DNA of 64,000 bases from Clostridia bacterium (GCA_017504945.1 JAFVQJ010000023.1:11745-75744), one strand, 5' to 3'; counted from the stretch's first letter, positions 15,697 to 20,117 are shown. Numbers and translations are program-made. The notes: a model not told the origin generated them from the sequence alone.

Positions 15697-17106
15697 ATGG
15701 TTAAAAAAATTTTATTGATCCTTACCGTCGTTGTAATGCTTTTGCCGTTTGCCTCCTGCGGAGCAAAGCCCGCATTGGCAGACTACGTAGTAACCTACGG
15801 CGCGGGTGAGAAAAAGGCGGCAGAGCTACTTGTAGAAAAAATCAAGGAAAAGACGGGTATTGCTCTTGAGCTTGTGGCAGAAAACACCGTAAACAGCGAT
15901 CTGGTGATCTCTGTGAATGCAGATGAGGTCGGAAACTTCGAGGGAAACCTTGGATACGATGACTTTACCGTATATACCGAGGGTAAAGGTCTTCACATTG
16001 TCGGCGGCTCCGACTATGCAACGAATACTGCCGTTACAAGACTCGTAAAGCTGATGAGTGCCAATCCTGACGAATTTGACGTGGCAAAGCTTTCACTTTC
16101 CTACGCGTTACCGTCGAGAGAGGAATATATCCAAAATCCCGAAAAGCTTGCACTCCATTGGGAATCGGATTTCGAAACACCATCGTGGATGCTGGATTTT
16201 GAAGAGAAATACAGAGCGATGACAGACGTTGACGGAAGACTTATCTCGTGCTTACACCGCGGAGAAGCAGTCTATTATCCCGAAAACTCAATAGAGGGAA
16301 TAATAAGTGCGATATATATGGGCGGCGATATGATAGAGATCGACCCGCGCCTTACCAAAGACGGAGTTTTCGTCTTAATGCACGATGAAACCCTCGGCCG
16401 CACCACAGACGTCTATTCAAAGGTCGGTAAAAACGGATTGCCATCAACGGTAAATATAAGCGATTGGACCTATGAGCAGCTTATGCAGCTGAACTTAAAG
16501 GATGCAAGCGGAGACGTCACACCTTATAAGATACCCACCCTTGAGGAGGCTATAAAGGTCTCTGCAAACCGAATTTTCATAAGACTTGACGTCAAGGGCC
16601 CCACGGGAAGCGATCTTCCGTTTTGGGATTTTGAAAAGGATATCTGGCCGCTTCTGGAAAAATATAACTGTCACTCAACCGTGCTTTATACCTGGCAAAA
16701 ATTTTTCCGTGCAGACAGCTTTAAGCTTGTAAAGAAATACCGTAACCTTTCGGAGAAAGCCTCGGGAAAAGCAATGCTTGGCTTTTTGAATAACAAAACC
16801 ACGGCAGATGATGCACTTAAGGTTATCGAAAATCACGATCTTGCTTATGCAATGAGACTCTCCTTCAATTTAAGCGAATTCGGCTACAATACCTTCCTTT
16901 CCGAAAATAAGGACAGGCTTGATGGTTTTAAGGGCAAAATAAGAATTTATGCCGACGTTCACAACACAAACCCGAAATATCCGCAAAACAAGGAATCTTA
17001 CGAGCTTTACGAAACGCTTTATAACGCGGGAATAAACGTTCAGCTTGCAGACAAAAGTATCCTGATATGCAAATACGTTGCGGAAAACTTCACCGCAACG
17101 AAGTAA
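15697..17106 (+). CDS. Lipoprotein glycerophosphodiester phosphodiesterase with N-terminal accessory domain
   Basis: Lipobox FASC; HRG..YPENSI, IEIDPRLTKDGVFVLMHD, IPTLEE. Confidence 0.85.
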   Translation: MVKKILLILTVVVMLLPFASCGAKPALADYVVTYGAGEKKAAELLVEKIKEKTGIALELVAENTVNSDLVISVNADEVGNFEGNLGYDDFTVYTEGKGLHIVGGSDYATNTAVTRLVKLMSANPDEFDVAKLSLSYALPSREEYIQNPEKLALHWESDFETPSWMLDFEEKYRAMTDVDGRLISCLHRGEAVYYPENSIEGIISAIYMGGDMIEIDPRLTKDGVFVLMHDETLGRTTDVYSKVGKNGLPSTVNISDWTYEQLMQLNLKDASGDVTPYKIPTLEEAIKVSANRIFIRLDVKGPTGSDLPFWDFEKDIWPLLEKYNCHSTVLYTWQKFFRADSFKLVKKYRNLSEKASGKAMLGFLNNKTTADDALKVIENHDLAYAMRLSFNLSEFGYNTFLSENKDRLDGFKGKIRIYADVHNTNPKYPQNKESYELYETLYNAGINVQLADKSILICKYVAENFTATK

Positions 17107-17130
17107 ATCAAAAACAAAAAAGCTATCCCA

Positions 17131-17166
17131 TTGCGAGACTTCTCATAAGGAAGTCTCGCAGTTTTA
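17131..17166 (+). terminator. Terminator after the phosphodiesterase gene
   Basis: TGCGAGACTTC-TCATAAG-GAAGTCTCGCA followed by GTTTTAT. Confidence 0.7.
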
Positions 17167-17340
17167 TTCGCCAAATATATTTGGCGAGTGATATTGCTTC
17201 GCAGTGATATGATGCTTCGCATCGTGATATTCGGCTACGCCGAGTTTGGCGAATAAAATAACACTGAAACCGCAAGGTTTCAATAACACTATTGCGTAAG
17301 CGATAATATCACTCCGACAAAGTCGGAATATAACTCTTGC
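17161..17340. repeat. Hairpin-ladder element A (GTGATAT-like x4, then ATATCAC-like x4, interleaved with mini-hairpins)
   Basis: GTTTTAT 17161; GTGATAT 17188, 17204, 17224; ATAACAC 17258, 17283; ATATCAC 17306; ATATAAC 17328; palindromic spacers. Confidence 0.85.
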
Positions 17341-17365
17341 TTTCTCAGCAGATTTTTGATATAAT
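17337..17365 (+). promoter_or_regulatory. sigma-A promoter with extended -10, abutting ladder A
   Basis: TTGCTT (17337-42), 17 nt, TATAAT (17360-65) preceded by TG. Confidence 0.7.
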
Positions 17366-17505
17366 ACAATCAGCATGATAGGGGTATGGGCTTTGCCCTA
17401 TGCCTTTGTAATACAAAGGCGAAACTGGCGATAAAACGGAATGACAAATTCTCATTTAGCAAATAGTTGAATTAATCAAAAATTACAATATATGGAGGAA
17501 TTAAA

Positions 17506-17931
17506 ATGAATAAAATTCAAAAAAGAGATTTGTTGGGATTTTTTGTTTTTTTGCTGATTTTAGTTGCTATTTTTTGTATATCTGTTTTTGTATATCCAAT
17601 GTGTTTGACAAGTGAAGGCTATTCGGGTGAACATGTCACCCCAAGCCTGAAAGAAATAATAAAATCTATGTTGTTCTTTATTCCAATTATATTATCTTTT
17701 TTTGCTGCAATATATCTCTATTATTTTGCTTTAAAATTCAAGAGATTTAATAAGTTGGTTTTTCCGTGTATTGTTATTGATGCTACGGTTTTAGTATTTT
17801 TGGGTGGTATCGCATTATGCGGTGGAGCTTTTTTGTGGTTAATGTTTTTAATAATTCCCGCTTCTTTTGTCTTGTTCATTTTAGGAATTATTTTTGGTTG
17901 GAAACTTGATAACAAATCCAAAAAGGCATAA
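17506..17931 (+). CDS. AT-rich orphan membrane protein (about four TM helices)
   Basis: RBS GGAGGA; very hydrophobic; base composition visibly more AT-rich than the flanking genes. Confidence 0.75.
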   Translation: MNKIQKRDLLGFFVFLLILVAIFCISVFVYPMCLTSEGYSGEHVTPSLKEIIKSMLFFIPIILSFFAAIYLYYFALKFKRFNKLVFPCIVIDATVLVFLGGIALCGGAFLWLMFLIIPASFVLFILGIIFGWKLDNKSKKA

Positions 17932-17965
17932 AAAATTCAACAGATTTCAGTTTATCGAATATATA

Positions 17966-18010
17966 AAGATCCCCGACAGACGTTTTAAAAATCTGTCGGG
18001 GTTATCTCTT
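17966..18010 (+). terminator. Terminator after the orphan gene
   Basis: CCCCGACAGA...TCTGTCGGGG stem followed by a T-rich tail. Confidence 0.7.
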
Positions 18011-18040
18011 TGTTTTCTGAGGATCAAATATCGCTTATCC

Positions 18041-18088
18041 GTAGGGGTGTTCTTTGAACGCCCGCGGACGAACACAGCTCGTCCCTAC
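18041..18088. repeat. GTAG-type REP doublet (REPIN-like)
   Basis: GTAGGGGTGTTCTTTGAACGCCCG followed by the inverted unit CGGACGAACACAGCTCGTCCCTAC. Confidence 0.65.
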
Positions 18089-18167
18089 CGTGTATTGGTA
18101 AAAATATTTTGAAATTTTTCGCTAATTCTGCACGCCCTTCGGGATAGCTTTTTTAATTTGTAAAAGC

Positions 18168-20117
18168 TTACACAGCCTTGAGCCTGTTGCTCTTGCTTTT
18201 TACTACCTGCAGGATAACGGGAACCGCGATCAGCGCAACGCCGATAAGGTCGGTAACGAGTCCGGGGTAGATGAGAAGCAGACCGCCTGCGGCGCTCGGA
18301 ATTCTCTCATACCATTTCATATTGGTAAGGAAATATCCCTCAAGCGAAGCAGATACCGCAAATATGCCTATAAACGAGGTTATGCAGATGAGGATTACCT
18401 CGGGGACGTTTGTATCGATAAGGAGCATTGCGGGGTTTAGTGCAAAAACGTAAGGAACGATAAACGCGCCGATAGCAAGCTTTGTTGCGGTAAACGCCGT
18501 TTTCATTGGGTTTGCCTGTGCAATCGCGGCGCCCGCATAAGCGGCAAGTGCAACGGGCGGAGTGAGGTCGGCAACGATACCGAAATAGAAAACGAAGAAG
18601 TGAGCGGCAATGGGGGGAATACCGAGCTCAACCAGAATGGGAGCGCAGGTAGCCGCCATAATGCAGTAGTTTGCGGTGGTGGGAACACCCATGCCCAAAA
18701 CTATGCAGCAAAGCATCGTGAGGAAGAGGGCGATTATCTTAACGTTGCCCGCAATGGAAATAATGCCGTTAAAGAGAAGGTAAGCAAGACCTGTTGAGGT
18801 GATAAGTCCCGCAACGATACCTGCAACACCGCAGGCTGCGGCGACGGTTATCATACCCTGACCGCCTGCCGCCAACGCTTCAAGCAAGCGCTTGGGGGTA
18901 ATGCGGGTATTTTTGTTAAAGAGGCTTACCAAAATTGCGGCAACTATCGCAATAGCTGCGGCGTAGGCTATTGAATAGGTGCTGGTGCCTACGAGGTAGA
19001 TAAGGAGAAGAAGGGGGAAAAGCAGGTAGCACTGCTTTAAAAGGGGCTTTAGCTTGGGAAGCTCTTCCTTTGTAAGACCCTTAAGTCCCATCTTCTTTGC
19101 CTCAAGATGAACCGTGATAAATACGCCCGCGAAATAGAGAACTGCAGGCAAAATCGCCTTTACCACTATGTTTGAATAAGAAACGCCGAGAGTTTCAGCC
19201 ATAAGGAAGGCGGCGGCGCCCATAATAGGAGGCATTATCTGACCGCCCGTTGAAGCCGAAGCCTCTGCCGCGGCGGCAAATTCGGGCTTATAGCCGGTGC
19301 GCTTCATGAGAGGAATGGTAACTGCGCCCGAGCCTACGGTATTTGCAACCGACGAGCCCGAGACCATACCCTCGAGAGCCGAAGCAACAACAGCAACCTT
19401 TGCGGGACCGCCGGAGAAGCGTCCGACAAAGGCGTTAGAGATGTTAATAAAGAAATCGGCAATGCCGGTGCGCTCAAGAAATGCGCCGAATATAATGAAT
19501 ACCACTATGTATTTCGAGCAAACGTTAATGGGGGTTGAAAGTATGCCCTCCTTGGAATAGAAGAGAACGCGAACGGTCTCGGTTATTCTTGCAAGGAAAT
19601 TGGGGTTGGTTGAGCCCCAGATAAGCGCATAGACGAGAAGCACGCCCGCAACGACGAGTATCGGAATACCGACGCTTCTGCGGCAAAGCTCGGCAAGACA
19701 CAAAATGCCGATGATGCCGATTATCATTTCAAAAGTGGATATTTTAAAGTTGGAAACTATCCTTGTTGCGTTAAAGCAATAGTAAAGGAAGGAGCCGGTG
19801 CCGAGCACCAGAAAAATTATATCGTACCACGGAATATGATTTACCTTCTGCGTACCCTTTTGTGCGGGGAAAACGAGAAATCCGATAAAGGTGATAAACG
19901 CCATAAAAGAGGTAAGACGGATCTCGTCGAGCCAGGTTGCAAAAAGGGTAACGTAAAGACAGAATACCGCAAAGGTGGCAAGAATTGCCGTAACTATCCA
20001 CTTGGGAGCGCCTTCCCATATTCTTACGTTTGACTCACGGTCAAACTTTTTCATTACGTCGTCAAGCGACATGGCTTCTGCGGCTTCGGGAACGTTTTTC
20101 TTTTTGAAAAGTGCCAT
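18168..20117 (-). CDS. TRAP transporter fused permease (4TM/12TM, TAXI-type)
   Basis: GGPAKVAVVAS, SGSSVAN, EASASTGGQIMPPIMGAAAF, LGMGVPTTANY, ADLTPPVALAAY. Confidence 0.93.
   Translation of the reverse strand: MALFKKKNVPEAAEAMSLDDVMKKFDRESNVRIWEGAPKWIVTAILATFAVFCLYVTLFATWLDEIRLTSFMAFITFIGFLVFPAQKGTQKVNHIPWYDIIFLVLGTGSFLYYCFNATRIVSNFKISTFEMIIGIIGILCLAELCRRSVGIPILVVAGVLLVYALIWGSTNPNFLARITETVRVLFYSKEGILSTPINVCSKYIVVFIIFGAFLERTGIADFFINISNAFVGRFSGGPAKVAVVASALEGMVSGSSVANTVGSGAVTIPLMKRTGYKPEFAAAAEASASTGGQIMPPIMGAAAFLMAETLGVSYSNIVVKAILPAVLYFAGVFITVHLEAKKMGLKGLTKEELPKLKPLLKQCYLLFPLLLLIYLVGTSTYSIAYAAAIAIVAAILVSLFNKNTRITPKRLLEALAAGGQGMITVAAACGVAGIVAGLITSTGLAYLLFNGIISIAGNVKIIALFLTMLCCIVLGMGVPTTANYCIMAATCAPILVELGIPPIAAHFFVFYFGIVADLTPPVALAAYAGAAIAQANPMKTAFTATKLAIGAFIVPYVFALNPAMLLIDTNVPEVILICITSFIGIFAVSASLEGYFLTNMKWYERIPSAAGGLLLIYPGLVTDLIGVALIAVPVILQVVKSKSNRLKAV

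Follow-up and report, generated by a model that had tools for sequence, protein, structure and literature searches.

What is the ladder of short hairpins that lies between two convergent protein-coding genes of a Clostridia bacterium, and what does it do there? The ladder occupies 17161-17334 on the + strand of the window, by which we mean the whole 64,000-nt stretch of DNA that was analysed. In the initial annotation it had been divided into 7-mers and hairpins over 17161..17340. Each segment of that parse is found again at the base level and the start is correct; only the end has to be moved, to 17334. The parts of the ladder are as follows.

17161..17243, + strand: left (strong) arm, M1-H1-M2-H2-M3-H3-M4-H4, the Rfam Gut-1 unit (segmentation computed), with M1 GTTTTAT at 17161-67, H1 at 17168-87, M2 GTGATAT at 17188-94, H2 at 17195-203, M3 GTGATAT at 17204-10, H3 at 17211-23, M4 GTGATAT at 17224-30 and H4 at 17231-43
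17244..17257, + strand: central segment, 14 nt, a copy of the 3' half of H1 followed by the complement of M1
17258..17334, + strand: right (weak) arm, M5'-H5-M6'-H6-M7'-H7-M8', an inverted, degenerate Gut-1 unit on the - strand, with M5' ATAACAC at 17258-64, H5 at 17265-82, M6' ATAACAC at 17283-89, H6 at 17290-305, M7' ATATCAC at 17306-12, H7 at 17313-27 and M8' ATATAAC at 17328-34

Each left-arm 7-mer precedes a small perfect hairpin; the right-arm 7-mers are near-complementary to these and have three hairpins between them. Read from the sequence, the nested rungs pair at 7/7 positions for M2:M7' and at 6/7 each for M1:M8', M3:M6' and M4:M5'. The loops are also as first described, that is, C-GNA-G on the minus strand for three left-arm hairpins (H2 GAA, H3 GAA and H4 GTA, all C-G closed) and GNAA on the plus strand for two right-arm hairpins (H5 GCAA, H6 GTAA). 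The spaced pair GTGATAT-N(7-22)-GTGATAT has two matches in the window, against 0.00 expected from 100 shuffles. The ladder is not a chance pattern.

Folding was calculated with both RNA and DNA parameters, as had been suggested at the outset, and the ladder folds far better than its shuffles: z-scores against 200 shuffles are -8.6 for the + strand as RNA, -7.5 for the - strand as RNA and -9.2 for the + strand as DNA, and 0/200 shuffles fold as well. The centre can pair with M1 and the 5' half of H1, because it repeats the 3' half of H1; in the resulting fold, which we call S1, this pairing extends over 15 bp. The relation between the centre and M1-H1 is present in 71/105 loci versus 31/105 in a swapped-locus control. 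Nearest-neighbour energies for the top strand of the window, followed by the computed optimum, are listed here.

Hairpins only: RNA -45.2, DNA -29.6 kcal/mol
Ladder: RNA -50.9, DNA -31.1 kcal/mol
Alternative S1: RNA -52.2, DNA -28.0 kcal/mol
Computed optimum (MFE): RNA -63.8, DNA -39.8 kcal/mol

The first three are close in energy and all lie above the optimum. The 7-mers can pair in the nested order proposed earlier, and the stacked four-way-junction ladder built on it is one of three near-isoenergetic folds. The pairing of the centre with M1-H1 was absent from the initial annotation, as were a hairpin (P0) in front of the array and the Rfam name of the element.

That name is Gut-1. RF01706 matches 17159-17235 (+) along the full model, positions 1-77, with 58.6 bits versus a cut-off of 50, and matches 17253-17336 on the - strand with 25.5 bits (E 0.012), under the cut-off. 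Membership in Rfam Gut-1 is taken here as a covariance-model score of at least the gathering cut-off of 50 bits, which the left arm passes and the right arm alone fails. Since the two matches lie on the + and - strands, the ladder can be described as two Gut-1 units face to face. The element had not been recognised as a named one, and a match to a described Rfam family had been set down beforehand as grounds against its novelty; RF01706, at 58.6 bits for the left arm, is such a match.

In the excerpted text of Weinberg et al. 2010 (Genome Biol 11:R31, PMC2864571), Gut-1 is listed as 'certainly' RNA ('Y') and not cis-regulatory ('n'), and is known solely from human-gut metagenomes. A literature search found no publication treating Gut-1 as a repeat or a cassette end, a point on which the motif's original supplementary discussion may bear. 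The window resembles the family in its left arm, which matches full-length over the cut-off and has three hairpins joined by GUGAAAU-like words, and in its source, since both come from gut-derived, uncultured organisms. It differs in scale and in setting. The Rfam model is 77 nt long and typed as an sRNA gene, whereas in the window it corresponds to one arm of a mirrored unit of 174 nt, with a preceding hairpin, a central pairing segment and many copies. The unit in the window is, moreover, the front end of a cassette that lies inside a terminator. This cassette, about 1.0 kb long (~17130-18140), consists of P0, the ladder, a promoter, a leader X, a 141-aa ORF, a terminator and a tail. Its parts other than the ladder, with the host sequence on either side, are given below.

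17118..17129, + strand: left half of the split host bidirectional terminator, an A-run plus GCTATCCC (17122-29), complementary to 18141-48
17133..17159, + strand: P0, 27 nt, a perfect 10-bp hairpin with a 7-nt loop, then AGTTTTATT; terminator-like, and the first feature of the cassette
17338..17370, + strand: cassette promoter, TTGCTT-17 nt-TATAAT with TG upstream (by eye), beginning 3 nt past M8'
17378..17449, + strand: leader X, structured and conserved, separating the promoter from the ORF, with 12 copies in the genome
17506..17931, + strand: passenger ORF, 141 aa, with a hydrophobic N-terminus; no Pfam family found
17971..18001, + strand: terminator-like hairpin of the passenger gene, CCCCGACAGA ... 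TCTGTCGGGG, with a T-rich tail after it (read from the sequence)
18002..18140, + strand: 3' tail of the cassette, 139 nt, with a branched hairpin, an AT-rich palindrome and the end ...GCACGCCCTTC
18141..18154, + strand: right half of the split host terminator, GGGATAGC (18141-48) plus six T, predicted and then found

For the promoter, a scan returns an overlapping candidate, TTCTCA-17-TACAAT at 17342-17370 (9/12 matches); both paralogues and orthologues retain the -10 element. Leader X has no Rfam match above noise. The stretch 17971..18001 matches a multi-copy sequence in the sister genome G001, and the end motifs of the tail resemble, by eye only, the ends of other copies. The sequence shared among paralogues and orthologues starts with the very first base of P0. 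P0 itself is replaceable: the orthologous loci of the window, G001 and a second sister genome, G003, have three different perfect P0 hairpins between flanks that are 92-93% identical, and this wholesale exchange points to module swapping or gene conversion among copies.

Several further observations concern these parts. Of the P0 variants (at 17133-17159 in the window and at the equivalent place in L031 and L032), two turn up again in further copies of the ladder. Leader X, ~60-70 nt long, follows a -10 element and precedes unrelated genes elsewhere (other copies are at G000 C5:16378-16446, C10:11051-11119, C14:94638-94698, C30:25149-25196, C3:7329-7362 and others); in gene-less elements it points towards the ladder, with a terminator after X. 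The closest paralogue of the window's cassette (L074 437-1453 (-), which is G000 C24) has two passengers, an Avd-like gene and a 338-aa protein that is an AraC-type regulator by the look of its sequence.

The host genes on either side of the cassette are convergent, a GDPD gene at 15697-17106 (+) and a TRAP DctM gene at 18168-20117 (-). From the left flank it was predicted that a complement and a T-run would lie downstream of the next gene, and they were found at 18141-54. The inverted repeats on either side of the element in the window, with their A-run and T-run (17118-29 : 18141-54), are thus specific to this locus, and the cassette lies in the loop of a host bidirectional terminator. Five long copies of the GTGATAT sub-family also have inverted repeats peculiar to their locus, preceded by an A-run and followed by a T-run, which places each of the five likewise in the loop of a host bidirectional terminator. 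A strict test, requiring a perfect stem of at least 7 bp with A-rich and T-rich flanks, is passed by 11/37 ladder loci of the window's genome (8 with stems of at least 9 bp) and by 92/3000 random positions; of the 37 loci, 7 to 9 are truncated by contig ends. Two further loci have a split terminator by eye with one mismatch.

What lies between the half-stems varies in size. Gene-less elements span 360-430 nt and retain P0 and the ladder, elements with one gene span ~1040 nt, and one element with two genes spans 1732 nt. At the same half-stems as in the window, the distance is 1027 nt in the window, 785 nt in G001 and 1597 nt in G003, and the two sister genomes have other passenger genes at this split terminator. 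An unoccupied version of the window's locus was sought and not found: the genes on either side have no match in G002 or G004, and of the 50 stretches returned when metagenomes were scanned for the pattern of the intact terminator, none has related flanks at the protein or DNA level. Synteny around two other, fragmented, contigs gave no empty sites. We therefore infer insertion from the way in which the inverted repeats are split and from the differing lengths between them.

Many other cassettes, and mini-elements that have no gene, begin with this module, both in the window's genome and in related gut Clostridia. The search for such ladders across genome and MAGs that the initial annotation called for is productive in both. 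In the window's genome (1.38 Mb in 33 contigs, 86% complete) Gut-1 has 54 matches at E <= 1, 20 of them over the cut-off, at 37 loci, and two-armed arrays occur in other MAGs. In at least 17/37 loci two units form a pair, the left one + and the right one -, and many of the 37 are at contig ends. Sub-families differ in their 7-mer (GTGATAT, GTGAAAT, GTGAAGT, ATGATAT, ATGATGT and others); whichever word an element has in its left arm, the complement of that word is found in its right arm.

Compensatory changes among homologues, another check proposed at the start, are present in the hairpins; paralogues also vary compensatorily in the outer stem of P0. The 7-mers of the two arms co-vary as well. 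Across 58 loci with at least 3 words per arm, pooled from the window's genome and other MAGs (related genomes and paralogous copies, so that the counts are non-independent), 94.7% of word positions are Watson-Crick within a locus versus 81.6% when arms are swapped between loci. Pairing the words from the centre outward gives 1292/1365 Watson-Crick positions; when words are matched at random inside each locus the mean is 1276.4 (sd 4.2), and 0/1000 such matchings reach 1292. Mismatches in the paired words of these loci are G.T in 29 cases versus A.C in 11, and a clade of ~8 loci departs from the centre-nested register. Statistical support for the rungs of the ladder is real but modest.

A few copies are arranged differently. 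At G000 C18:115633-115708 and C23:82561-82636 the topology is reversed, so that the complement words come before the Gut-1 arm, and one such copy adjoins a tRNA-Pro terminator in the opposite orientation. Between two ladders at G000 C17:8493-13191, gene order differs from that in G001:C14 and G003:C31, with one block inverted and re-joined; ladders may therefore mark rearrangement breakpoints.

If the element moves, a gene for its mobility might be sought nearby. The initial annotation asked for neighbouring genes to be tabulated, and of the kinds that it listed only the four-helix-bundle (Avd-like) genes recur. The window's genome (86% complete) has 0 matches to the reverse transcriptase family PF00078 and 0 to the Y1 transposase family PF01797; it has one tyrosine recombinase gene only, on another contig, and no recombinase or transposase in it is tied to the element. 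These counts bear directly on a REP/REPIN-type repeat mobilised by a RAYT (Y1 HUH) transposase, which would share with the ladder a constant word plus hairpin in many extragenic copies, at gene 3' ends and in inverted pairs. PF01797 also has 0 matches in the Gut-1-rich genomes G007, G016 and G036; it occurs in 8/32 other genomes, those with <17 Gut-1 matches or none, and the hairpin stems are not conserved in sequence, unlike those of REPs. We consider this explanation extremely improbable. With no correlation between PF01797 and Gut-1 load, the RAYT/Y1 link was rejected; DGR or retro-mobility was rejected on the count for PF00078, and an integron-like system on the single tyrosine recombinase and the lack of a cassette array.

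PF05635 (Avd-like, '23S rRNA intervening sequence protein') gives a different picture. The window's genome has three such genes, all near a ladder: two are directly downstream of one and the third is within ~510 nt. The closest paralogue of the window's ladder is the setting for one of these two, and tRNA-Leu precedes the other; the window's own cassette has no PF05635 gene. Among 41 genomes of the order, PF05635 is present in 18/20 with Gut-1 vs 3/21 without, a comparison that is no formal test because the genomes are kin. The three proteins were also used as queries to collect 80 PF05635 loci from other MAGs, whose records name Acutalibacteraceae, Oscillospiraceae or Clostridia, mostly from animal guts. 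Rfam Gut-1 is directly upstream of the PF05635 gene and co-oriented with it in 34/39 evaluable loci (40 scanned), and our own parser finds a two-armed array directly upstream in 71/77 evaluable loci of the 80. In 14 of these loci that were viewed in detail, the order is usually a tRNA gene (varied tRNAs) with a canonical terminator, followed by the ladder and then by a -10 element and a Shine-Dalgarno sequence in front of the Avd-like gene. This adjacency may mean only that the gene is the commonest passenger.

The preferred neighbours of the element are stable-RNA genes in general. In other MAGs the unit of ladder and Avd-like gene is also seen after a 6S RNA and tRNA cluster, a tmRNA gene precedes the Avd-like gene at L108, and L111 has two tandem ladders. 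For tRNA-adjacent copies, an origin of the right extension from a tRNA fragment was considered and set aside, as no convincing T-arm can be seen by eye.

From this material we propose, at a probability of roughly 45%, that the ladder is the structure-defined, cis-acting end of a terminator-targeting mobile cassette, that it probably acts as folded single-stranded DNA, and that the Avd-like four-helix-bundle protein (PF05635) is the prime candidate for the factor that reads it. The ladder would be the portion without which such elements cannot spread, and it would be defined by structure, not by sequence. It would be recognised as one folded strand, DNA most likely; there, constant 7-mers bear short hairpins with C-G-closed G(N)NA loops, and left-arm 7-mers can zip up with right-arm ones. 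A cis-acting site for spread is suggested because the array is kept in all derivatives, is structure-defined and lies outside the cassette transcript. The Avd-like protein is the first candidate reader because it is the only recurrent gene partner, and the fullest copies encode it directly downstream. On landing in a terminator loop, the cassette need not break host expression, because it brings P0 and its own promoter.

Whether the array is transcribed matters for this reading. Of 17 candidate runs, all with a small share of the query and available as contigs only, four RNA libraries were examined, animal-gut or bovine metagenomes by record; depth from contigs shows neither strand nor ends, and RNA libraries can contain DNA. 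In the leader X bin (17401-17481) summed contig depth is 16-1142, in contigs with many unrelated flanks. The ladder bins have a summed depth of 0 in some runs and 1.3-6.4 in others, and the flanking genes have mostly 0-5.3, with 23.8 in the last bin. The abundant X transcript does not include the ladder. The array is upstream of the cassette promoter, and what precedes it is a terminator-like hairpin, not a promoter. As a side observation, X is the most abundant block of the region in the contigs of the four libraries.

These findings weigh on the classification of Gut-1 as a free-standing small RNA gene, the type given to it by Rfam and by Weinberg et al. 2010. The left-arm Rfam match over the cut-off agrees with that type, and so do the ratings 'Y' for RNA and 'n' for cis-regulatory in the excerpted text (PMC2864571). 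Such a gene would have to be reconciled with a terminator-like hairpin and no promoter in front of it, with 37 loci in 1.38 Mb, many of them inverted pairs and many at contig ends, with a place inside split terminators, with low depth in RNA-library contigs (where no strand or ends are shown) and with a 77-nt model that spans one arm of a 174-nt unit. In the window and its relatives we regard it as very unlikely.

The choice between DNA and RNA can be approached through the loops. Our survey covers 322 distinct hairpins from 108 loci, 136 from left arms and 186 from right arms, all given on the Gut-1 sense strand. Left-arm loops are cTNCg in 62/136 and cTNNCg in 31/136 (93/136 together); right-arm loops are cGNAg in 36/186, cGNRAg in 35/186 and cGNYAg in 25/186 (96/186 together). 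Therefore, on whichever strand carries its ATWTCAC-type word, each arm has G(N)NA loops closed by C-G. Stems vary between sub-families and linkers are constant. The motifs d(cGNAg) and d(cGNNAg) form unusually stable DNA hairpins, and RNA favours GNRA and cUNCGg loops. A reading of the left-arm loops as UUCG tetraloops was tried and rejected, because the register gives C-G-closed UUC triloops, not cUUCGg. Mismatches in the stems carry a second signal. Read on the top strand, they include 25 G.T and 0 A.C in the right arm, against 4 G.T and 3 A.C in the left; so the top strand appears to be selected to fold, at least in the right arm, and this would hold for RNA or DNA alike. Left-arm loops are G(N)NA on the bottom strand only, which folding of the top strand does not account for.

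In the initial annotation the element was thought to function as folded or extruded DNA rather than as RNA. The loop types, the place of the array between a terminator-like hairpin and a promoter, and the low depth in RNA libraries agree with folded DNA, and that choice is plausible. The right-arm excess of G.T over A.C (25 vs 0) counts against symmetric extrusion of both strands as a cruciform, as it points to one strand folding. Put together, loop chemistry favours DNA, and the strand asymmetry plausibly fits either DNA or a read-through RNA.

A read-through RNA would arise from transcription that passes a weak P0; the array would then fold compactly in the transcript and spare both termination and the neighbouring genes. 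Compact folding without disturbing neighbours is a role often proposed for 3'-end REP or BOX repeats. Gene calls from a crude ORF picker at the 37 loci place a co-oriented feature on the P0 side of the array in 28/37, 7 of them tRNA genes, so that read-through into the array is possible. In these 28, the feature on the other side is co-oriented in 11 and opposite in 10, and a contig end takes its place in 7; where the P0-side feature is opposite, the other side is opposite in 5, co-oriented in 2 and a contig end in 2. Many P0 hairpins have no good T-run, the sense strand as RNA folds with the z-score of -8.6 given above, its right-arm stems show the G.T excess, and in gene-less elements of 360-430 nt within terminator loops folding would unite the half-stems. 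The loops fit RNA less well, being mostly C-G-closed triloops in the left arm (62/136) with no true cUNCGg register; in right-arm tetraloops the third position has no purine preference (35 GNRA vs 25 GNYA). Folding of the array cannot rescue the half-stems in gene-carrying cassettes of 1-1.7 kb, and the arrays of other MAGs follow canonical tRNA-gene terminators with A-run, stem and T-run. Read-through RNA is possible on these grounds, if somewhat unlikely.

The ladder might instead serve the cassette promoter as an upstream control region or insulator, with the 7-mers as operators or the palindromes as a supercoil buffer, often for self-regulation by the Avd-like protein. The last 7-mer is 3 nt before the -35 region in the window and 12-125 nt before the PF05635 match in the 71 loci with a two-armed array, and several of the 14 loci viewed in detail share the sequence of the final two hairpins. 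Such a role would leave unexplained why gene-less elements keep the array with no downstream gene or outward promoter. The 7-mer spacing in the window's ladder is uneven (16, 20, 27 nt), which suits phased protein binding poorly, and the selection that is seen acts on intra-strand pairing. We judge this role distinctly improbable.

Returning to the cassette-end reading, several known systems resemble the element in part. REP/BIME and REPIN of Proteobacteria and BOX of Streptococcus pneumoniae are multi-copy, extragenic, hairpin-forming, modular repeats at 3' ends and in inverted pairs. The ladder is likewise multi-copy, extragenic and modular, at the 3' ends of transcription units and in inverted pairs. 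Here, however, the stems vary (the 322 distinct hairpin sequences of the 108 loci) and the linkers are constant, the reverse of REPs, and no RAYT was found; unlike REP/BIME and BOX, many ladder copies carry a promoter and a passenger gene. Integron cassettes are small, single-gene and promoterless, arrayed beside intI/attI, and their attC sites are conserved in folded single-strand structure. The site in the window is similarly conserved in structure, not sequence, with cargo exchanged at a fixed site. The present cassettes differ in being dispersed, in having their own promoter and in targeting a terminator hairpin loop, and there is no array beside an integrase (the lone tyrosine recombinase gene of the genome is on another contig).

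Other systems choose their target by a hairpin, as the present element seems to do: IS1397/ISKpn1 insert into REP palindrome loops, and class C group II introns home beside terminator hairpins. They encode a transposase or an RT, whereas none was found here. A diversity-generating retroelement (DGR), in which an RT gene accompanies Avd, does not fit a genome with 0 matches to PF00078. A MITE would have terminal inverted repeats, a target-site duplication and a parent IS that encodes a transposase; the end motifs GGCGTGAT... and ...ATCACSCC are seen by eye only, and no clear target-site duplication and no parent IS were found. In Coxiella burnetii, for example, 23S rRNA has intervening sequences that contain a PF05635 (S23p / Avd-like) ORF according to excerpts of two articles (PMC4990558, PMC10053308). 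As described there, they too are small selfish elements with a PF05635 gene, lodged in a host RNA-coding hairpin. The host hairpin in those excerpts is rRNA helix 45, not a terminator, and no Gut-1 array is reported in them. The window's cassette, moreover, lacks the PF05635 gene that its closest paralogue has, and lies between two protein-coding genes rather than in 23S helix 25 or 45.

A more far-reaching version of the proposal can be put forward, though we think it doubtful. The Gut-1 array may be a docking platform for pentameric Avd-like four-helix bundles, and array and gene together may form the autonomous core of an undescribed mobile element that has no classical transposase, targets single-stranded hairpin loops and ferries promoter-equipped cassettes between them. 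The targeted hairpins would then be terminators in the present case and helices of rRNA in that of the 23S intervening sequences.

Since 2010, Gut-1 has stood as an orphan 'RNA gene' from uncultured bacteria of the gut. Should it instead be the structured end of gene cassettes that move, the type assigned by Rfam would mislead annotation, and many contig breaks in MAGs of gut Clostridia would receive a named cause. The cassettes would also offer a tractable system for placing DNA into terminator hairpins without harm to neighbouring genes, and the widespread Avd-like (PF05635) proteins found outside retroelements would gain a candidate function.
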